From positions 64,013-128,012 of the forward strand of contig JACPHO010000002.1 in assembly GCA_016188545.1 (NCBI GenBank): a DNA stretch of 64,000 nucleotides, read 5' to 3'. A program made the translations under genes and the position numbers. The notes beneath the pieces were generated by a model, which did not search any database, was not told the origin of the DNA, and saw only the letters and a list, made by a program, of their open reading frames with translations. This stretch comes from Candidatus Shapirobacteria bacterium. GTDB lineage: Bacteria > Patescibacteriota > Microgenomatia > UBA12405. Shown here piece after piece: positions 1 to 10,218 of the stretch (position 1 is its first letter; each line of letters starts with the position of its first letter).

Positions 1-1
1 A

Positions 2-232
2 CCTAAAACATTTGGGAGTCTGGATTATTTTCCACTTATCCCCTGGTTTGGGGTGATGTTGTTGGGTGTGATAATTGGGAAAAGTTTATCTAAAAAGCTA
101 GAATTGAATGTGGGAGCGGTAAGTGGTATGTGTAAACTTTTGACTATGATAGGACAAAAATCACTGCTGGTGTATTTGGTACACCAGCCAATATTGTGGG
201 GAGTAATGACTCTGATCACTATTTTACGATAA
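2..232 (+). CDS. 3'-partial CDS: C-terminus of a membrane protein (…LVYLVHQPILWGVMTLITILR*)
   Basis: Open frame runs off the 5' edge and ends at TAA 230-232. The hydrophobic, protein-like translation is more plausible than the overlapping 64-aa minus-strand ORF. Confidence 0.3.
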   Translation, partial: PKTFGSLDYFPLIPWFGVMLLGVIIGKSLSKKLELNVGAVSGMCKLLTMIGQKSLLVYLVHQPILWGVMTLITILR

Positions 233-689
233 GGTTGGCATGAGGTATTCCCATGCCACAGGTTATATAATGAAGTCCTTTAGAGGTTGGAATGAACTCA
301 ATAACATTGGTTTTACCTTTTTCAAAAAACTCGACTTGAGAAGAAAAATCCGGAATCATCAAACTCCCCATACAACCGATACCATCCTCAGTGGCAGTGA
401 CTTCGAGGCGAAGTGGGACACCAAGCTTAACAGCGAACTGGGTGGGGACAAATCCATTAGGCGGTCCATAGGTGGCTCTAATAACTTCAACACTTGAATC
501 TGGCGGTGGTACTTGTGAAGGTGGAATATTTGCCGGAGGAGTCGAGACTTTAATAATCGTAGGTGTTGGCGTGATTGGCTGTCCAGAGGGGGCAAGAGAT
601 TCGGCATTTACATACCTAAACGAGTGGAGAATTACAAAACTAGCGAGAGTGAATAAAACAAATGACAATAAAGCATACTTTATTTTCAT
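219..689 (-). CDS. Secreted or membrane-anchored cupredoxin-like domain protein
   Basis: N-terminal hydrophobic leader. C-terminal HYITCGMGIPH motif resembles the C-x-M-G-M cupredoxin-like domains of the two downstream paralogs. Lies in the copper locus. Confidence 0.5.
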   Translation of the reverse strand: MKIKYALLSFVLFTLASFVILHSFRYVNAESLAPSGQPITPTPTIIKVSTPPANIPPSQVPPPDSSVEVIRATYGPPNGFVPTQFAVKLGVPLRLEVTATEDGIGCMGSLMIPDFSSQVEFFEKGKTNVIEFIPTSKGLHYITCGMGIPHANLIVK

Positions 690-731
690 ATAAGCTATGG
701 CACCCTGGGGTTACCTAGGTTACCGGTAGAG

Positions 732-3700
732 TTAGTTTACTGAATCTTCAGAAGTTGGCATGACCGATGATTCGGTTTTTAAGGAGTTCAAATAATTGTC
801 TTTAAACTCGCGGGGGACGAAGTGCATCATGTCTAAACTGGTCAAAGTTCTTTTGGGTAAGCCAGCAACAATGACATTGTTGCCAAAGAAGTCTTTGAGT
901 GTATCTAGTTTCTTACTAATCAACTTCTCAGACTTCATCATGGCTGCTTCGTCGTAACCAATAGTTACCGGGAGGAATTTCATATTCCCCATGGTATAGC
1001 TGCGCTTGAGAGGGTTAACCACACTGCGAAGTAAGGCTGGGATATTGTTTCTATCGTAGAGGTAGAACATCTTCAACTCCCCCATACCAGTCTCGGTTAC
1101 AAGAATATCTTCTTTGGCAAGAAGCTTGTCAAAAGTTGAACGATTAAAAACGTGATATTCATCTAGAGCGGTTCCAGTTTGTTCGAGTATGCCAACTATT
1201 TTTACACTAGGCAGTCCAAAGAAATCTTTTAGCTCGGAGCCGACTCCGCTAATTAGTCCCTCTCCCTTCATCATTGAAGCTTCTACTGAGCCAATAATGA
1301 CACTGTTTTCTGCCGAAAGATCAAGTGAACCTTCCGCCAGTTTTAGACTTTGAGGTAAGCTGTCTAGACCCAAGAAAAGCTTGGGGAGTTTACCTACCAT
1401 TCCAATTCTTGATGGATTGTTAATAAGTGCTTGGTTTATTTCAGTCTGAACTGAGGGATTATTGACTAGATAAGCAGCTAGAGCAGTTGATTTTTCCATA
1501 CCTCCCATTTGTGACGAGAAGCGGGCAAATTCAAAGAAAATGGTGATAAAGACAGCTACCATAGCATAGGGTGCCAGCTTGGAAACCCAGTTAAATTTAC
1601 CGGGTTTATACAACTTCAGTGTCAAAGAATTGGTAACGACCGAGACTGAAGAGAGAGCCATAGCAAGACCGGCCAACTCTGGTTTTAGGACAATACCAGC
1701 GAATGCTAGGGCACGAGCGGCAATGGGGATTCCTAAGACATTGTAAAATAAGGCAAAGAACATATTTTGGCGTATTTTACCGACTGTTTCTCGCGACAAG
1801 CTGATGGCGGTTAAGACACCATTTAGGTCATTACTAATAATGACTATGCCTCCTGATTCCATGGCGACGTCAGCACCGGAACCCATAGCAATACCAAGAT
1901 CAGCTTGAGTAAGTGCGGGAGCGTCATTGATACCGTCTCCAACCATGGCAACTTTGAGGCCACTGTCTTGGAGTTTTTTGACTTCTTCGGCTTTGTTCTG
2001 AGGTAGAACTTCAGCTAAAACGTTAGTGATACCAACCTGACGAGCAATAGCCTCGGCGGTGCGTCGATTGTCGCCAGTGATCATATAAACGGTTATTCCT
2101 ATTTTTTGTAATTTGGAAACTACATGAGCTGAGGTTTCTTTTAACTGATCGGCGACCGCAATGACACCGAGAATTTTTTGACTATCAGCTATGATCATGG
2201 CAGTTTTGCCGTCATTTTCAAATCGCTCCATATCGAAAGAAGCTGAAAGTGGAATTCCGTTTTGTTCCATTAATTTGCGGTTACCAACATAATAGACACG
2301 ACCATTAACTTTGGCTTTGACACCGTGACCAGGAATGGCTTGAAAATCATCAAGAGGATAATTCACAGCACCGGAACTTTGACCATATTTAACAATGGCT
2401 TCTGCCAAAGGATGCTCTGATTTTTGCTCTATTGAATACAAAATAGAGAGAATTGAAGTATCACCTGGGAGATAGTTGATAAAATCGGTAACTTCAGGTT
2501 TACCCTTAGTAAGGGTACCGGTTTTGTCAAAGACAATAGCCTTGATTTTTTCGGCCATTTCTAATGGTTCCCCTCCTTTAATAAGAACACCGTATTCAGC
2601 ACCCTTACCTGTACCAACCATAATGGAAGTTGGAGTGGCCAATCCAAGAGCACAGGGACAGGCAATAACAATGACAGCGACAAAGGCGAGGAGTGAAAAG
2701 GTCAGAGTGGCACCGAGGAAGAAGTACCAAACAACGAATGTCAGAATAGCAATGGCGATAACTATCGGGACAAAGACAGAAGAAATTTTATCGGCGACTG
2801 CCTGAATTGGGGCTTTTGACCCCTGGGCATCTTCAATTAATTTGACGATTTGACTCAAGGCAGTATCGGCACCAATCTTGGTAGTTCGAAATTCGAACGA
2901 ACCAGTTTTATTGATCGAAGCAGTGAATATTTTGGAACCCACCTGTTTTTCGACAGGTAAAGATTCTCCGGTAAGAATAGATTCATCGACTGCGGAGTAA
3001 CCGGAAGTTATTTCACCATCTACTGGGATACGGTCACCAGGCCGAACGATAACAATATCACCAACGATAACCTGCTCAACTGGGATATCAATCTGTTGAC
3101 CATTTCGACTTACACGGGCAGTCTTAGGTGCTAGACCCATGAGTTTTTCAATAGCTTGCGAAGTTTTACCCTTAGCCTTGGCTTCCATGAATTTGCCTAG
3201 AGCAACGAAGGTTATTAAAAAAGCAGCTACTTCGAAATAAAGATTAGGGACTTTAAATCCGTTTAGACCAACCAGAGACCCTGTTTGCTGAAAATATTTG
3301 ACATATTCATAAACGCTGTAGGTGAAAGCAGTACCAGTACCAATAGCGATTAGTGAATCCATGCTAAAAGTACGCATTTTTAGAGCAGACCAAAATCCGG
3401 CAAAGAAATTGCTACCGACATAAAAAAGTACCGGGGTGGACAGAATAAGCGAGGCAATACCAGCATAGGGCATGATGGTGGATTCGAGGGGAACCTTAGA
3501 GGTGAAATCGTAAACCATGAAGAGAATCATGGGGATACTCAAAACAAAACCCAGGAAAAATTTGGTGAACCAGTAGCTAATTTCTTTTTGGCGTTTTTCT
3601 TTTTGGTTTTCTTCTTTTTCACCGGGAAGTGAGGCAGAGTAACCAGCCGATTCCACCCCTTTGATTAAGTCCTCCACTTTAGCTGTTGATGGATTGTAAA

Positions 3701-4172
3701 CAATACGAGCTTTTTCGGAAGCAAAGTTGACATTTACTTCGGTGACACCGTTGACTTTTTTGAGTGATCTTTCGATAAGACCGGCACATGAAGAACAGTG
3801 CATACCAGTTAAATTAAGAAGGGTGACTTGGGAAGTAGATGAAACATCTGAAGCTGGTGATATTACTTCTGTGGGCATTGTCGAATGATCATGTTCTGTT
3901 TTGTCTACAGCTATAGTATTTGAGCCCTCCTTCGCTAAAGCTACGGCGGGTAAAGCAGCATAACCAGACTCTTTAATATTGGCTACCAAGTCGTTTATTT
4001 TGATTTTGGATGGGTCAAAGTCGACAGTGACTTTTTTGGTATCCAATGAGGTGGCGACAGAGGTAACACCCTTGAGATCCTTGAGACCGATGGTAATTAT
4101 CTTGGGACAGGAGGCACAATGCATGTCGGGAACCGATAAAACTACCTGCTTTGATTTTGTTTTTGATTTCAT
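732..4172 (-). CDS. copA: Copper-translocating P1B-type ATPase with two N-terminal HMA domains and an atypical ~300-aa C-terminal extension
   Basis: Two MxCxxC motifs ([16 protein letters not shown]). Membrane CPC motif ([11 protein letters not shown]). DKTGTLT phosphorylation site, GDGINDAP hinge and TGES-like actuator (LTGESLP). 1146 aa versus ~800 aa typical. Confidence 0.9.
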
Positions 4173-4214
4173 AGTTTTTTGTACTACTTGCGTAGTAGTT
4201 AATAATAAAAAAAA

Positions 4215-4433
4215 TTAAATTGTGGTGGCAGTGTACCCGCTTTCTTTGATAGTACTAATTAATTCTACAGGGGAAACTGTATCGGGGTCATATTCAACGA
4301 CAACAAGTTTTGTGTCGAGAGAAGCGTTAGCAACGACAACTCCCTGCCTATCTTGAAGGTCTAACTGAATAAGACGTGGGCAAGAGGGACAGTGCATGTC
4401 ATCTACTTTAAAGGTGATAGTTTGAGTAGTCAT
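4215..4433 (-). CDS. copZ: HMA-domain copper chaperone
   Basis: 72-aa protein with DDMHCPSCP (MxCxxC) ferredoxin-like HMA fold signature, immediately upstream of copA. Confidence 0.8.
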   Translation of the reverse strand: MTTQTITFKVDDMHCPSCPRLIQLDLQDRQGVVVANASLDTKLVVVEYDPDTVSPVELISTIKESGYTATTI

Positions 4434-4500
4434 TGGGAATAATTAAGAATTAATAATTAGGAATTAGGAATTTAGTTTGCTTAATAAATTATTAAAATAT

Positions 4501-4887
4501 TTAATTGACGACTTCGAAGGAACCGGTGTACATGCCCATGCTACAACTAAATTTGTAAACTCCAGGTTTTGCGGCAGTAAACTCTTGGGTAACGGTTGTA
4601 TTTGGTGAGAGAGCAATCATGCCAGAAAAAAATGAAGGGGCAACAAGCGCACTGGCGCAGCCAGCGTTGCCAACACTGGTAATCTGCCAAGAGACAGGGA
4701 TGCCGGCACGAATTTTGAGACGAGACGGTGAATAGCCCGAGCCAGAGGCGGACATCTTGACAATTTGCTTACCATTAACAATTTCAGGAAGATTGGCAGC
4801 TGAGACATTACCTGGCTGACGACTAAAGAACCAAAAGACAAAACCGGCTAACATTACAAAAATTCCAACTAAATAAAAGTTTTTCAT
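4501..4887 (-). CDS. Membrane-anchored cupredoxin-like domain protein
   Basis: N-terminal TM helix. C-terminal GVYKFSCSMGMYTGSFEVVN is almost identical to the C-terminus of the 502-aa fusion protein. Cupredoxin_1-type domains commonly flank CopA. Confidence 0.6.
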   Translation of the reverse strand: MKNFYLVGIFVMLAGFVFWFFSRQPGNVSAANLPEIVNGKQIVKMSASGSGYSPSRLKIRAGIPVSWQITSVGNAGCASALVAPSFFSGMIALSPNTTVTQEFTAAKPGVYKFSCSMGMYTGSFEVVN

Positions 4888-4901
4888 ATTTTTTTAAATT
4901 A

Positions 4902-6410
4902 TTAACGGACACCTCCACAGGTAGCTCCCCCACCGCCACCACAACCCTGCCGGTCGGCAGGCAGGCTTTGGCTCAGATCGGAGTTGTTAATTGCCCCAGT
5001 TGATCCACTTGTGTCGACTACTTCGACGGTACCAGTGACCATGCCCATCCAACAACTGAATTTGTAAACCCCAGGCTTGGGTGAAGTAAATTCTTTGACG
5101 GAAGTAGTGCCATCGACAAGATCAATTTGACCTTCGAATAGACCACGGGACATAATGGCGTTGGTGCAGCCGCTGATGTTGTTGGAAGTGATTTCCCAAC
5201 GAGTTAGGGTATTGGCTCTCATTACTATACGGTTGGGGGTGTATCCAGAGGCAGAGGCGTTTATTTTTATAATCTGTTTACCGTTTACTAAAGCTGGTAA
5301 TTCACCAGCATTTAACGTTGACTGGCTAGTGGGTTGACTACCAACAAGATCATTGATGTTGGTAATGCCCAGGACAGATAATTGGGCATTAATATTGAAA
5401 GCTGCAAAAAATAAGACCAATAGACCAGCTATCATGGAAAAGTTTGAAGCCAGACGTGGATTGCTATAGAACTTAACACTACTAAGACCTATGGCCAGAA
5501 GTCCTGGTACTGTTCCAAGAGCAAACAGACCCATGATCAGAGATCCAGTCAATGGACTTCCTGAAGCTAGGGCAAGTGCCTGGGCAGTGATGGTAAACCC
5601 GCAAGGGAGAAAAAAGGTAAGGGCACCCATTAGAAGTGGCGCCAACTTACCAGTAAAATTTGACTCATCTGAAAGCCTTCCGGTAAGTGATTTTGGTAAT
5701 CTAATCTGGAATCGCTGGAGTGACTTGATGCCAAGCATTTGGAGACCAAGTAAAATCATCAAAAGAGAGACTCCAATTACCATGGAGGCTGAAACTAAAG
5801 GTGAAAGTCGAAAATAGTTTCCAATTAACCCAAGCATACCGCCAAAAAATGCATAACCTAACACGCGACCTGCGTTAAAGAGGAGGTGTGGTTGGGCTTT
5901 TTTGGCAAACGAGTCACCTGGACTGTAGAGCGATAGCCATTGTTTACTAACTGAGAGGACAATACCTCCGACTAGAGCAGCACAACTACTGACTCCGGCC
6001 AATAAACCAAAAAAGAAGAAAACTATCAGAGAAGACTGGGCGTTAACAGATATAGCTGAAGAAAATCCGGTTTGAGAAAGAAAAATATATCCGAGTATAA
6101 ATAGAAGTGCGTAGAATATTGATGAAATTATGGTTGAGGGCTGGTTTGATGGTGTGGGACAGGTGTCATCTTGAATGATGGTGGTGTGCTTAAATGGATT
6201 TAAAGAAAAAGAATAACCATCTACTTCAAACATTTCATTTAGTTTTTTGTGGGTAAGCTTGAATCCTGGGATTGTTTCTAAAGTGAGTGTATTTTTAGTA
6301 AGAGAGACGTCGGCGAAGTTGACACCGGCGGTTTTCTTAAGACGTTTTTCAATTAGAAGTTCGCAGGAGGGACAATGGAGACCTTTGATGAAATAGACTG
6401 TACGTTTCAT
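4902..6410 (-). CDS. Fusion protein: N-terminal HMA domain, polytopic DsbD/CcdA-like transmembrane core, C-terminal cupredoxin-like domain, Gly/Cys-rich tail
   Basis: GLHCPSCELLIE (MxCxxC). About 8 TM helices with membrane-embedded Cys (SSCAALVGG, FLPCGFT) as in CcdA/DsbD_2. C-terminal GVYKFSCWMGMVTGTVEVVD. Tail CGGGGGATCGG. Confidence 0.5.
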   Translation of the reverse strand: MKRTVYFIKGLHCPSCELLIEKRLKKTAGVNFADVSLTKNTLTLETIPGFKLTHKKLNEMFEVDGYSFSLNPFKHTTIIQDDTCPTPSNQPSTIISSIFYALLFILGYIFLSQTGFSSAISVNAQSSLIVFFFFGLLAGVSSCAALVGGIVLSVSKQWLSLYSPGDSFAKKAQPHLLFNAGRVLGYAFFGGMLGLIGNYFRLSPLVSASMVIGVSLLMILLGLQMLGIKSLQRFQIRLPKSLTGRLSDESNFTGKLAPLLMGALTFFLPCGFTITAQALALASGSPLTGSLIMGLFALGTVPGLLAIGLSSVKFYSNPRLASNFSMIAGLLVLFFAAFNINAQLSVLGITNINDLVGSQPTSQSTLNAGELPALVNGKQIIKINASASGYTPNRIVMRANTLTRWEITSNNISGCTNAIMSRGLFEGQIDLVDGTTSVKEFTSPKPGVYKFSCWMGMVTGTVEVVDTSGSTGAINNSDLSQSLPADRQGCGGGGGATCGGVR

Positions 6411-6443
6411 ATACTACACAGTGTAGTACATGCTAAATATTTG

Positions 6444-7391
6444 TCAAGAAGATAAACTGGGGAAGTCACAGTTTTGGTTGTTAATAATTGGTGGGGGCAT
6501 AAGATGGTCTGGAGTGACTAAGTTTTGGAAACATTTGACAAGATGTTGACATTGATAAAAGAAGTCAGTCTGATTTAAATAAGCCACAGAAACTATCAAG
6601 AGACTGATCATTAACAGATTAGGATAGAGTATGGAGCCGAAGAATAATTTCTTCTTACCAACTAATATTTTGATACGTTCAGATTGGGCGGAAAAGTGAC
6701 TTAGATAATAATATTTAGGACGAAAAGACTCTTGGATCTTAATTAGGGCGGTTATAAGGGAGTCAGGATGAGTGGTTGAATTTTGGGAGTGAATATCACA
6801 ACCTATTTCGATAAGAGTGTAATACTGTCCAAAAAACCAACTTTTACAGGGGAAGTAAGGGGTAATATAGGAAATAAAATCTACAAAGAGATTTTTAAGT
6901 GGATCAAAATTATGACGATGAGATTGTTCGTGGTTTAGGATGGAGCTTAGTTCGTCCGGAGTGGAGACTTGGATGACCTTATCTGAAACAAAGACTTGCG
7001 GTTTTAGCAAACCGGCAGTAAAAACAGTGGCATAGTTGGAGCTGAATACTTTATAGAGAGCATTTGTTTTAATAATGTTTAACGAGCTTAAATATTTTGA
7101 AGTGTTAATTACTTGGCTAAGCAGCCGATAGAATCCAGATACGACTAAAGTGAGAAGGTATGTCCAAAGTATTCCGGCGGAAAACTGAGTTAAAAAATCC
7201 TGACGGGTAAAAAGAGTCGATATAGAATTGGGATGAACAATAAGTGAATCAAAAAGATAAATAAACTGCATAAGAAACCCAGAATATATTTTTTGACTAA
7301 AGAACGTCAGTGAGGTGAAATAGGTTAGACCAACTAAGATAATAAGAATAAATGAAAGCTGGCGATAGAAATTGACAGCTGTTGATTTCAT
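6444..7391 (-). CDS. M56-family (BlaR1-like) membrane metallopeptidase lacking an extracellular sensor domain
   Basis: Polytopic N-terminus. HExxH in ILNHEQSHRHNFDPLKN, typical of the BlaR1/MecR1 M56 loop. Start overlaps the upstream BlaI-family repressor stop by 4 nt. 315 aa, so no penicillin-binding sensor. Confidence 0.7.
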   Translation of the reverse strand: MKSTAVNFYRQLSFILIILVGLTYFTSLTFFSQKIYSGFLMQFIYLFDSLIVHPNSISTLFTRQDFLTQFSAGILWTYLLTLVVSGFYRLLSQVINTSKYLSSLNIIKTNALYKVFSSNYATVFTAGLLKPQVFVSDKVIQVSTPDELSSILNHEQSHRHNFDPLKNLFVDFISYITPYFPCKSWFFGQYYTLIEIGCDIHSQNSTTHPDSLITALIKIQESFRPKYYYLSHFSAQSERIKILVGKKKLFFGSILYPNLLMISLLIVSVAYLNQTDFFYQCQHLVKCFQNLVTPDHLMPPPIINNQNCDFPSLSS

Positions 7392-7786
7392 TTTTTATTT
7401 AGATAGTTTTTAAGAAGCTCCAGATCTTCATTGTTTGACTTGAGAGAATCGACAAACTGGGATATGGCTAATTTGCCGTAGGAATGTACCAGACCATTAT
7501 AGATTCCAGAGAGATTGGTTTTGACAAAATCTTCACGGCAGTGACAAGGAGCATAGAGAAAAGCTTTTCCAGCTAGCTTACGACAGGCAAAGTTTTTGTC
7601 AGTAAGTCTTTTGAGGATGGTCATGACGGTAGTGTAGGCGTAATCCCCTTTTAGAAGATTTTTGACATCCTGTGGTTTTAGGGGATTCTCTGAGTTCCAA
7701 AGGATTTCCATTACTTGCTGTTCGAGTGGACCCAACATATCAGTTTTCATACTACTGAGTGTAGTAGATAACCACAAGGAAGTCAA
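7388..7786 (-). CDS. BlaI/MecI/CopY-family winged-helix transcriptional repressor
   Basis: LGPLEQQVMEILW…YAYTTVMTILKRLTDKNF…FLYAP is the penicillinase-repressor-family signature. Translationally coupled to the M56 gene. A CHC motif follows the wing. Confidence 0.75.
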   Translation of the reverse strand: MTSLWLSTTLSSMKTDMLGPLEQQVMEILWNSENPLKPQDVKNLLKGDYAYTTVMTILKRLTDKNFACRKLAGKAFLYAPCHCREDFVKTNLSGIYNGLVHSYGKLAISQFVDSLKSNNEDLELLKNYLNKK

Positions 7787-7808
7787 TTATTGTCAATGAT
7801 AAAATAAT

Positions 7809-8603
7809 TTGGTGAGCAAACTAAATTTGGCGGTCATATTTTGGTTTTATAAAGAACCGGAAATTTGTATCAATAGGCTTATGTTAATAAAAAAACATAA
7901 CCCTGATTTAAAAATATTTGGAGTTTTTGGAGGTAAGCGGGAAGAAGAGTATTTGTATAAAGAAAAACTTGGTAAATATCTGGATGATTTTTATTGCCAC
8001 ACATCAACGGATAATGATTGGAAATGGATACATGGAGATTTGATGTTACTAGATTGGTATCGAGAAAGAGGAAACAAACTAGATTGGGATAGTGTAGTAA
8101 TAGTGCAATGGGATATGCTAGTTTTTGATAGTTTTAATAATCAATTTCCAAATATAAAGAAAAATGAAATGTTTTTGTCTGGATTACAAACTTTAGATAA
8201 ATACACAGAAGTTAATTGGGAGTGGACTAGCCCACTTCGAGAATATCGAAAAGATTTTGATAATTTTTTAAAATTTGCTAAAGAAAAATATGGATATAAG
8301 AAAGATGAATTGCCATGTTGTTTGTTTATTATTGAAATAATACCGAGAATATTTTTTGAAAAATACTTGACTGTGGAAAATAAGGATGTGGGAATGTTGG
8401 AATACAAAATACCTATTTATAGAGAAATATTTGATATTCCTATATACAAGAAAAACGTCGGGGCTCATTGGTGGGGAAATGTAGAACAATTCCCGTTAAA
8501 CGCAGAACCAACTGAAATAAAAACTAGATATATTGAAGCAGAACTAGAAAAGGAATATGGATGGAGAATTTTCCATCCATATTTTAAAATTTGGGATAAA
8601 TAA
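7809..8603 (+). CDS. Hypothetical protein (264 aa, Trp/Tyr-rich, no recognisable motif)
   Basis: Long clean ORF with plausible coding composition. No confident family assignment. Confidence 0.45.
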   Translation: MVSKLNLAVIFWFYKEPEICINRLMLIKKHNPDLKIFGVFGGKREEEYLYKEKLGKYLDDFYCHTSTDNDWKWIHGDLMLLDWYRERGNKLDWDSVVIVQWDMLVFDSFNNQFPNIKKNEMFLSGLQTLDKYTEVNWEWTSPLREYRKDFDNFLKFAKEKYGYKKDELPCCLFIIEIIPRIFFEKYLTVENKDVGMLEYKIPIYREIFDIPIYKKNVGAHWWGNVEQFPLNAEPTEIKTRYIEAELEKEYGWRIFHPYFKIWDK

Positions 8604-8627
8604 CGAGGGTTATAAATACCTTGAATA

Positions 8628-8984
8628 CTAAGGTTCAATCTTTTGGAGCTTGGCCATGCGATTGAAAGAAGCGATAACTTCGTCACCGTAACTATCAAAA
8701 AGCCTCTCAAAAAGATCATCGAGACAGCCACAGGCATAGGTAGATTTATCCTGGACCGGTGTGTAATAAAAAACATTCCCCTTCTGCTTTCGGGTTACTA
8801 AATCTTTGTCAAACATCCTTTTAAGGACGGTGGTGATAGTGGTGTAGGCATGGCTATTACCAAGGGTTTTGACGATTTGAGAAGGCTTCTGGGCTGTAGT
8901 ACTATGCCAGAGGGCATCCATGATTTTTTGTTCGAGTCCCCCGAGCATTTTACACTTGGCATTACAGTTACAATCACAGCTCAT
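8628..8984 (-). CDS. BlaI/CopY-family repressor with N-terminal Cys cluster (CDCNCNAKC)
   Basis: GGLEQKIMDALW…HAYTTITTVLKRMFDKDLVTRKQKGNVFYYTP is the same winged-helix signature as the 132-aa paralog. N-terminal MSCDCNCNAKCK and an internal YACGCL motif. Confidence 0.65.
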   Translation of the reverse strand: MSCDCNCNAKCKMLGGLEQKIMDALWHSTTAQKPSQIVKTLGNSHAYTTITTVLKRMFDKDLVTRKQKGNVFYYTPVQDKSTYACGCLDDLFERLFDSYGDEVIASFNRMAKLQKIEP

Positions 8985-9057
8985 AGCCCATTATACTACG
9001 ACGTGTGTCGCTACTGAAACTGAGCTGAAAACAGCTATCGGGTATACTAGTTAAGCT

Positions 9058-10218
9058 ATGATAAATCTTCTAAGACCATATTTAGTAATTCCAAAACTAA
9101 TTCAACAAAAGACATGGGGTGGTGAATACATATCATCGAAAAAAGGAATCCAGCTCGACAGTAATAATTCCTTAAAATTGGGACAGAGTTACGAACTCTT
9201 TTCTGGATCGAAGTTGACGTTGATGAACGAAGGTAAACAATATGAGGTGGGACACCCAGACCGGGATGAAATTGATAAGGAGTTGTCGATACCCATTGTC
9301 GAAGGTATAAGCCTTTTTGAACTGTCAGAGATAAATCCGGAAATGGCACTGGGGACCAACGTTACAAAAAATGGCAATGCAATGCCACTACTTTTAAAAT
9401 TGACCCAAGCTAAAGGTAACTCTTTCCAGCTACATATTAAACCAGGAACAAGCGATCCTCGGTGGCTGTCAAAATCGGAGACTTGGTATTTTTTTGAGAA
9501 AGGAAAAGTGACTTACGGTATTTCTAGAGGAATTTCGGTAAAGGACTATAAGGATGCATGTGTATTAATTGATCGAGAAATGAAAGAAATTAGCCAACTA
9601 ATTGTCGGCCAGAAACTGTCTGTAGATGAAGCAAGAATAAGGGCGAATGAACTCACTAAAAAAATAAATCCATGGCAATTTGTACAGCGCAGAACAGCAG
9701 AGGTTGGGCAAATATTTGACTTAAGTCAGGGGGGAATTCACCATTCGTGGGAAGAAGACTCTTTGAACAGTAATGGAAATATACTTTATGAAGTTCAAAA
9801 AGACCGAATGGATCCTTTTTCGACTATCAGGGCATTTGACCAAGGGAAAATTGATGATAAGGGAAATATCCGAGAGGTAAATATTGATGACTATTTTAAG
9901 TATTTGGATACTAGTGATGAGTTAAACATGGGAAGTTTTTCGGGTAAGAGTGATGGTTTAAACAATGCATTTACAACAAAGGACTATGCTATGGACATCA
10001 TTGAGTTTGAAAAAAATGTAAGTGATTCGACAGATGCTTCTTTTTGCCATTACTTCGTAAAGAATGGGAGGATAAAAGTAGAGACTGACGAAGGGTGGGT
10101 AACGGTGGAGAGAGGGTGGAGTTGTTTTGTGCCAGCTGCGGCCGCAAACGAAGTCAAAATTGAAAGTTTAGACGACAGAGCAACCATACTAAAGACTTAT
10201 GTCCCGACAAAAAACTGA
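9058..10218 (+). CDS. Cupin-fold protein resembling class I phosphomannose isomerase
   Basis: N-terminal QQKTWGGEYIS resembles the ManA (QNYAWGS) motif. FQLHIKP gives Q-x-H metal ligands, with a later GGIHHSWEED His. ~390 aa, like type I PMI. Confidence 0.4.
   Translation: MINLLRPYLVIPKLIQQKTWGGEYISSKKGIQLDSNNSLKLGQSYELFSGSKLTLMNEGKQYEVGHPDRDEIDKELSIPIVEGISLFELSEINPEMALGTNVTKNGNAMPLLLKLTQAKGNSFQLHIKPGTSDPRWLSKSETWYFFEKGKVTYGISRGISVKDYKDACVLIDREMKEISQLIVGQKLSVDEARIRANELTKKINPWQFVQRRTAEVGQIFDLSQGGIHHSWEEDSLNSNGNILYEVQKDRMDPFSTIRAFDQGKIDDKGNIREVNIDDYFKYLDTSDELNMGSFSGKSDGLNNAFTTKDYAMDIIEFEKNVSDSTDASFCHYFVKNGRIKVETDEGWVTVERGWSCFVPAAAANEVKIESLDDRATILKTYVPTKN

Follow-up and report, generated by a model that had tools for sequence, protein, structure and literature searches.

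A putative BlaI/BlaR-type proteolytic switch at a copper-export locus of a Candidatus Shapirobacteria bacterium

The stretch of DNA analysed here, hereafter "the window", consists of 64,000 nucleotides of contig JACPHO010000002.1 from a Candidatus Shapirobacteria bacterium. Its reference locus lies on the minus strand, at positions 219–7786, and contains seven co-directional open reading frames (ORFs). In the order of transcription, they encode R1, a winged-helix repressor of the BlaI/MecI/CopY family (ORF 7388–7786, Penicillinase_R match at 2e-22); M, a 315-residue BlaR-like membrane zinc protease of the M48/M56 type (6444–7391); F, a fusion of an HMA domain, a DsbD_2/CcdA-like membrane domain and a C-terminal CupA-like cupredoxin (4902–6410; HMA, DsbD_2 and Cupredoxin_1 matches); a membrane-anchored CupA-like cupredoxin, candidate Cu(I) chaperone (4501–4887, Cupredoxin_1); a CopZ-like HMA metallochaperone with an MxCxxC motif (4215–4433, HMA match); CopA, a P1B-1-type Cu(I) ATPase with two HMA domains (732–4172); and a second stand-alone cupredoxin-like protein, with a signal or anchor helix and a Pro-rich linker (219–689, weak Cupredoxin_1 match). 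A terminator-like hairpin followed by a T-run (166–188, minus strand), 3' of the last gene, is the likely operon end. The ORF list and the Pfam and NCBIfam assignments agreed with the initial annotation, a reading of the letters without database searches, on all seven genes, their coordinates and their domains.

The genes downstream of M form a copper(I) detoxification and export system, composed of CopZ, a Cu(I) CopA, outside CupA-like cupredoxins and F. CopA scored 626.9 bits against TIGR01511 (cut-off 397) and carries CPC at residue 505, YN at 810 and MALSS, of the MxxSS type, at 838, which we take as marks of Cu(I)/Ag(I) specificity. For the cupredoxin at 4501–4887, the best PDB sequence matches were the N-terminal cupredoxin of Streptococcus pneumoniae CopA (4F2F) and CupA (4F2E/2MRY), with the C...CxMxM copper site aligned (fsCsMgM versus fsCgMkM and faCgMnM). 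A CxMxM motif is also present in the translation of F.

Two perfect copies of the dyad TACTAC-N5-GTAGTA were found at the promoters of the locus, and the inverted-repeat search gave no other in the 64 kb. Operator O1 (7750–7766, minus strand) abuts the R1 ATG and overlaps the -10 box of P_R1, the promoter of R1 (TTGACT-17-TACACT, 7758–7786, minus strand, with 9 of 12 positions matching the consensus). Operator O2 (6412–6428, minus strand) overlaps the -10 box of P_cop, the promoter of the cop genes (TTGACA-16-TACACT, 6420–6447, minus strand, 10 of 12), which is the top promoter-like site in positions 1–9200, and lies one nucleotide 5' of the F ATG. Allowing up to two mismatches in the N5 dyad, 7 sites were found for 1.44 expected, and none of the shuffled sequences reached 7. 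We assign O1 and O2 as R1 operators with good confidence; a repressor bound on them would block RNA polymerase. The initial annotation, which saw a copper-export locus under a BlaI-family repressor, is thus supported both by the cargo (CopA, CopZ, cupredoxins) and by the operators at the R1 and cop promoters. It had also proposed to look for a BlaI-type operator with TACA and TGTA boxes. An operator does exist at both promoters, not only in the window but also in 13 of the 14 related loci described below, and it has the N5 form; TACAnnTGTA, the cop box, is absent from the locus, and was rejected as the operator, its single match in the window (42576) being outside the locus and at chance level.

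The position of P_R1 bears on the start of the repressor gene. It sits inside the longer ORF that begins at TTG 7786, and all R1 homologues begin at an equivalent MKT. Therefore, whereas the ORF at 7786 exists as annotated, R1 most likely starts at ATG 7750 (7388–7750, minus strand) and has 120 residues. The genes were regarded as one locus of seven; the genes stand, but they have at least two promoters, and a further repressor gene, R2, had been missed. They are not obviously one transcript, and are better described as two transcription units under one operator type. Separate transcription of the repressor and protease genes had been named as a reason to abandon the proposal; R1-M does have its own promoter, yet the same operator is found there, so that co-regulation with the cop genes is not refuted. 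Both transcripts are probably leaderless or near-leaderless. The window promoters before R1 (7750), F (6410) and R2 (8984) all have the -10 box 5–8 nucleotides from the ATG, with no Shine-Dalgarno sequence apparent, and leaderless mRNAs may be common in this genome. An Rfam scan of the window returned no RNA family, hence no known riboswitch or leader.

The stop codon of R1 and the start codon of M share four nucleotides (ATGA), in agreement with the translational coupling first annotated, and M gave no match to the transpeptidase sensor domain (PF00905), also as annotated. Four membrane helices are predicted in M, the last at residues 252–274, and the protein ends about 40 residues after it. 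The zinc-binding motifs are an HExxH at 154–158 (HEQSH) and an ExxxD at 195–199, of which H154, E155, H158, E195 and D199 are invariant; a QSERIKILxGxK motif is kept, and the Arg of QSERIKIL is invariant. Searched by sequence against the PDB, the M profile gave only weak HtpX/M48 matches, and BlaR1 was reached by fold search: for an AlphaFold2 (AF2) model with a predicted local distance difference test (pLDDT) score of 77, the top PDB matches were Staphylococcus aureus BlaR1 (8EXQ/8EXP/8EXR), with Ste24 and M48 enzymes ranking lower. Its sequence and model make M credible as an active protease of the BlaR type. Precomputed matches to the Pfam M56 family (PF05569) exist for many of its homologues.

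Loop 90–251 of M contains 16 Lys/Arg and the catalytic site, whereas the tail contains a single Lys/Arg. The loop should therefore be cytoplasmic, as in BlaR1 (PMC9834060), and since one helix (252–274) follows it, the tail of about 40 residues must then face outwards. This tail carries C281, H283 and C287 (CxHx3C), invariant in 18 of 18 aligned homologues and in 15 of 15 loci, and a third Cys, C308, present in 14 of the 15 loci. The protease had been called sensor-less, which in view of this conserved tail is probably wrong. The tail stands where BlaR1 carries its penicillin sensor, and that it acts as the sensor of M is a tentative proposal, with chances somewhat short of even; it may do so by binding copper.

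The comparison set consisted of 14 independent related loci (L001–L004 and L006–L015), that is 15 loci with the window, the nearest coming from metagenome-assembled genomes (MAGs) of Shapirobacteria or Patescibacteria. Homologues of M numbered 20 by word search, and 86 at E <= 1e-30 when 1.8 billion cluster representatives were searched with a profile. The gene order R1-M-F-(cupredoxin or FtrD-like)-CopZ-CopA-(cupredoxin) was found in 13 of the 14 loci, the exception being L015, where the copA genes are upstream of R1-M. Because this order is shared despite different flanks, the arrangement is not due to chance. Across these loci, identity was only 31–72% for M and 70–97% for the CopA core. 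R1 immediately precedes M in every one of the 15 loci, and the overlap of stop and start is kept across the family. A dyad T(A/G)CTACA(C/A)T-nn-GTAGTA abuts the R1 ATG in 14 of 14 related loci, with the TTGACA spacing kept in most of them, and a second copy abuts the F ATG in 13 of 14, with a TTGACA usually 16–18 nucleotides upstream. Extra copies precede another cupredoxin gene in L008 and flank a thioredoxin-like (Thioredoxin_4) gene in L002. Taken together, these findings are strong comparative evidence that the operator is functional and the regulon shared.

R1 scored 79.9 bits with Penicillinase_R (PF03965, cut-off 22.6), which places it in the BlaI/MecI/CopY superfamily, and its best PDB sequence match was Mycobacterium tuberculosis BlaI (2G9W, Rv1846c). 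The segment AI[SA][QN]FVD is invariant in the R1 sequences of the 15 loci, and aligns with the N|F cleavage site of BlaI and MecI as well as with AAFAD of PetR. In contrast, no Cys or His is conserved in the R1 family across these loci, and the C-terminal CxCx4CxC of CopY is missing, none of the 15 sequences having any C-terminal Cys. Because R1 lacks a conserved copper ligand, yet has the BlaI cleavage motif, proteolytic control is favoured over direct sensing of the CopY type.

The closest precedent is the PetR/PetP pair of Synechocystis (Slr0240/Slr0241). The BlaI-family protein PetR is degraded by PetP only with copper, in vivo and in Escherichia coli extracts (Garcia-Canas et al. 2021, bioRxiv 10.1101/2020.07.31.226407). 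PetP is a BlaR homologue that lacks a penicillin-binding domain and has membrane helices at 4–21, 28–50, 65–87 and 256–278; the operator bound by PetR is GAC-N5-GTC, and copper does not affect this binding (bioRxiv 10.1101/2020.07.31.226407). M was likened to PetP by this published description, and R1 was compared with PetR by sequence. In both systems a BlaI-family gene lies just upstream of a four-helix BlaR-like protease of about 300 residues with a cytoplasmic HExxH and, for M, helices at comparable positions, and in both the operator is a dyad with a 5-nucleotide spacer. A copper signal and destruction of the factor by the protease are likewise common to the two, for R1-M as a proposal. 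R1 scored 45–57 bits with PetR, against 14–44 with staphylococcal BlaI/MecI, in most loci; the two share the N-terminal motif LGxLE and, in the cleavage region, F-x-D, with an identity of only about 29%. The differences are also clear. PetR/PetP controls the choice between plastocyanin and cytochrome c6 (four genes), not metal export, and PetR also activates one gene; its half-sites are GAC/GTC, whereas those found here are CTAC/GTAG and do not correspond to a PetR operator; and the petRP mRNA is not copper-regulated, whereas R1-M carries its own operator. PetP is proposed to sense copper via two Met in the helix 2–3 loop, with no identified sensing site (bioRxiv 10.1101/2020.07.31.226407). 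Unlike these Met ligands, the conserved extracytoplasmic feature of M is its Cys/His tail, and the invariant M41 and Q42 of M lie within helix 2, not in a PetP-like loop.

With BlaI/BlaR1 and MecI/MecR1 of Staphylococcus and Bacillus, the locus shares a repressor and a membrane zinc protease with HExxH and ExxxD, the N/Q-F motif, a dyad that overlaps the promoter, and autoregulation of a pair in which the BlaI-family gene is adjacent and upstream. Unlike M, which has the short Cys/His tail in its place, BlaR1 and MecR1 possess a transpeptidase sensor; their cargo is a beta-lactamase or PBP2a rather than copper export, and the BlaI operator is made of TACA/TGTA boxes. CopY/CopR systems (Enterococcus hirae copYZAB, S. 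pneumoniae copY-cupA-copA) are alike in superfamily, in their CopZ, CopA and CupA-like targets and in having the repressor gene first, but R1 differs by lacking the C-terminal CxCx4CxC and the TACAnnTGTA cop box, and by its protease partner. Finally, BlaI/BlaR pairs that are free of the sensor domain (M. tuberculosis Rv1846c/Rv1845c, M. abscessus, Pseudomonas aeruginosa PvmSR, Clostridioides difficile CenIR) have a similarly short BlaR homologue, but control energy metabolism, virulence or envelope genes, whereas here the cargo points to the signal. A survey of M56 proteins reported a transpeptidase domain in only about 6% of them, and a BlaI-like gene near about 96%. From this survey and from PetRP it follows that absence of a beta-lactam sensor is the rule, and that copper-triggered proteolysis of a BlaI-type factor is already known. 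The regulatory route, initially regarded as unusual, therefore has a precedent as such, whereas its link to metal export was not found described: no BlaI/BlaR-type pair controlling metal efflux, no such Cys/His tail and no CTAC-N5-GTAG operator was found in 7.7 million open-access papers and bioRxiv, a search field that leaves most subscription journals outside. The copper-triggered protease/BlaI route has been shown experimentally only in cyanobacteria; what appears to be new here is the export wiring, the candidate metal-sensing tail and the recurrence next to copper pumps.

This recurrence extends to distant relatives of M. They have other Cys/His-rich tails, for example CDMxHC...CxxHC, of which three Cys align with the window M. 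In all six with enough flanking sequence (L017, L018, L021–L024), one of them from a MAG labelled Deltaproteobacteria, the operon is BlaI, M, in some cases a small YtkA-like protein, an outer-membrane factor (OEP), a CusB/CzcB-like adaptor and a resistance-nodulation-division (RND) pump. The fourth transmembrane helix of these pumps has the motif AIGxMxD(A/G)AIVxxEN, presumably typical of monovalent Cu/Ag pumps. The repressor is preceded by TTGACA-TTCTAC-N5-GTAGAA-TATAAT, and TTCTAC-N5-GTAGAA is repeated before the pump genes, so that these loci agree with the window in the CTAC-N5-GTAG core and in the layout with two sites. Searching plasmids by tblastn with a pump-linked relative returned only remote M56 genes of Bacillus and Paenibacillus.

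Metagenome contigs were then scanned for this 19-base promoter-operator, which was found in at least 120 loci (L025–L144; 121 instances). Among the matches listed, the repressor gene came first in 53 of 121 instances; M was present in 31 of the 36 repressor-first instances with at least 1.7 kb downstream, and pump genes were present in all 14 with at least 4 kb downstream. In all, 27 of the listed instances were directly 5' of pump, CopA or small metal-protein genes, and the same promoter-operator also preceded TRASH-domain, His-rich HMBD-like and CopA-linked genes. These gene contents point to a copper/silver regulon among uncultured bacteria, of which one carries the label Deltaproteobacteria. 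Of the 121 matches, about 20 (L026, L028, L032, L039, L048, L050, L060, L088 and others) were set aside, as they precede one conserved gene of the XRE-type helix-turn-helix family, of 73–84 residues. Several of these 20 are from human-gut assemblies. The group probably represents a mobile element or phage that is unrelated and has the sequence in common only by chance.

A second BlaI-family repressor gene, R2 (8628–8984, minus strand, Penicillinase_R), is located 0.8 kb upstream of R1 and has no protease partner. R2 scored 74.5 bits with Penicillinase_R (cut-off 22.6) and 36.4 bits with the CopY/TcrY equivalog TIGR02698, far from its cut-off of 121.95; as for R1, Rv1846c was the best PDB sequence match. 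Its N-terminus, MSCDCNCNAKC, holds four Cys, and the motif M-x-C-x-C-x-C-x3-C is found at that position in 29 of 29 full-length homologues; many database entries for R2 begin at an internal Met and, with 106 residues, are 12 too short. R2 was also found in L001 (3045–3338), L006 (4976–5269), L010 (2210–2494) and L013 (1334–1627). A dyad with a 4-nucleotide spacer, (A/C)CTAC-N4-GTAG, usually fused to TATAAT, precedes R2 in L001, L010 and L013. In L006 and the window the site is CGAC-N4-GTCG; in the window (8999–9010, minus strand), TAG and the R2 promoter's -10 box, TATAAT, come directly after it. The N4 dyad recurs before copA: in the window it reads TACTAC-N4-GTAGTA (4182–4197, minus strand), 10 nucleotides 5' of the copA ATG, a candidate R2 operator, and it is present in L001 (10889), L006 (10150), L010 (10252), L012 (9638) and L013 (9698), and absent from the loci with no R2 in view. 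The copA -10 box of the window is weak and degenerate relative to those of its relatives. This co-occurrence suggests that R2 is a second, CopY-like direct sensor of cytoplasmic copper acting on an internal copA promoter, and R2 probably controls copA as well. R2 is closer to CopY in logic than R1 is, but its Cys motif is at the opposite end of the protein. In L003, a CsoR-family metal repressor gene (PF02583; 6710–6949, minus strand) and a thioredoxin gene adjoin R1 in divergent orientation, so that copper regulators of three kinds occur together in some genomes.

We consider it fairly probable, from comparative sequence evidence, that R1 and M constitute a proteolytic switch of the PetRP/BlaIR type wired to copper export, with the M tail as its likely sensor. 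At low copper, an R1 dimer would sit on both operators and RNA polymerase would be blocked. M would be a four-helix membrane zinc protease whose catalytic domain is cytoplasmic, like that of BlaR1. Binding of copper, possibly silver, to the outward tail, or copper-driven oxidation of the tail, would render the protease active, and M would then act on R1 as BlaR1 does on BlaI and PetP on PetR, severing its dimerisation helix at the conserved (Q/N)-F. Once cut, R1 would dissociate from the DNA and both promoters would fire; more R1 and M would be made, so that the system would reset once copper falls. R2 would probably add direct cytoplasmic copper sensing at the N4 dyad before copA.

The alternative that survives best, although unlikely, is that M responds to the effects of copper stress at the envelope, such as oxidation of its tail thiols or damaged membrane proteins, and then cleaves R1. 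The Cys of an extracytoplasmic tail could form disulfides, and thiol-redox parts abound in the family: the DsbD_2 fusion, nearby DsbA or thioredoxin genes in L001–L004, and the extra dyads next to Thioredoxin_4 in L002. Moreover, the signals of most transpeptidase-free BlaR proteins are unknown. However, CxHx3C plus HC resembles a metal site, the recognised cargo of the operator family is all metal-related (CopA, CusCBA-like pumps, TRASH, HMBD-like), and PetP needs only copper in E. coli extracts (bioRxiv 10.1101/2020.07.31.226407).

Still less probable is that R1 itself binds Cu(I), via a CxC motif after the wing or by transfer from the CopZ encoded in the locus, M merely clearing the released repressor. 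R1 does match the CopY_TcrY model weakly, and the CxC is present in 8 of 15 R1 sequences. But the score (46.4 bits) is far under the TIGR02698 cut-off of 121.95, the CxCx4CxC is absent and no cop box exists in the locus; the CxC itself is reduced to one Cys in five loci and missing in L007 and L015; and the strict coupling of R1 and M is conserved, like the cleavage motif. Direct copper sensing by R1 thus seems unlikely from the alignments, and as a general mechanism it was rejected, because the CxC is not conserved. It is very improbable that M is a non-regulatory quality-control protease of the HtpX/M48 type, merely co-transcribed and directed at copper-damaged membrane proteins: M passes the Pfam threshold of Peptidase_M48 (22.7 bits, cut-off 20.3), is 100% identical to an NCBI entry named "M48 family metalloprotease" and has HtpX as its PDB sequence match, but by fold it is closest to BlaR1, a BlaI-like gene adjoins about 96% of M56 proteins, and both the overlap with R1 and the R1 cleavage motif are kept across the family.

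Several observations weigh against a copper-triggered R1-M switch. On the protease side, M narrowly misses the gathering score of PF05569 (29.9 versus 31 bits), and its fold match to BlaR1 has modest TM-scores, 0.43–0.46. The tail is modelled at low confidence (pLDDT below 50 from residue 291), the M of L012 is the one that is without the last Cys, C308, and the three outside Cys could be structural disulfides or a zinc site, not a copper sensor. The Met pair of the PetP helix 2–3 loop is not conserved in M, where residues 55–68 comprise no invariant position. On the repressor side, the presence of the CxC in part of the family implies that some members might bind metal directly, and repressor and dyad were paired by co-occurrence only. 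Last, M is missing from five metagenomic loci in which repressor and pump genes are present, so that the repressor can function without an adjacent protease.

A broader proposal is that R1-M belongs to a class of BlaI/BlaR proteolytic switches, widespread but so far undescribed, that sense metals through a short Cys/His-rich tail, use CTAC-N5-GTAG operators and serve copper/silver efflux in very different envelopes, from CopA systems in bacteria of the candidate phyla radiation (CPR) to CusCBA-like RND pumps in MAGs. We advance it tentatively, its range included, with the odds close to balanced. Most BlaR-like proteases have no beta-lactam sensor, and the window M and its relatives offer a concrete candidate in the form of a three-Cys/His tail; if the proposal is true, it would name a signal for some of the M56 proteins without a beta-lactam sensor, which make up roughly 94%. 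Some "blaR1/blaI" calls next to metal-resistance genes would then be metal regulators, not antibiotic-resistance genes. One review mentions a blaR1 next to nickel/cobalt resistance genes, and reads it as an antibiotic-resistance gene; "blaR1/blaI" in metal-polluted metagenomes may similarly be misread as co-selection of antibiotic resistance. The window locus would be the first described copper-export regulatory circuit in CPR/Patescibacteria, whose genomes are very small and have few known regulators. Its gene content suggests a two-sensor design, copper outside being perceived via M-R1 and copper inside via R2, and with a defined operator and an obvious output it would make a compact reporter system.

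Among the cargo, CopA has a length of 1146 residues, due to an extra membrane helix (about residues 863–886) and a C-terminal domain of 261 residues (735–1517, minus strand), predicted to be extracytoplasmic, with an internal repeat and an AF2 model of pLDDT 91. A Pfam search with this domain gave no match, and the sole fold matches, all weak, were the periplasmic domains of MacB, LolC and LolE. It is kept in most related loci, and stand-alone versions exist, two of them labelled Parcubacteria and Patescibacteria. It may provide the P-type ATPase with an outward-facing module for hand-off or extrusion.

Between R1 and R2, a low-GC stretch (about 0.30) contains an ORF of 264 residues on the plus strand (7809–8603), with no Pfam or NCBIfam match. 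As for F, its hydropathy segments were read as about seven membrane helices, two of which contain one Cys each. With this reading, the HMA domain would be inside and the CupA-like cupredoxin outside, and F could be a conduit either for Cu(I) or for thiol reductant, the latter keeping Cys on the outside reduced. The protein ends in a Gly/Cys-rich tail, CGGGGGATCGG.

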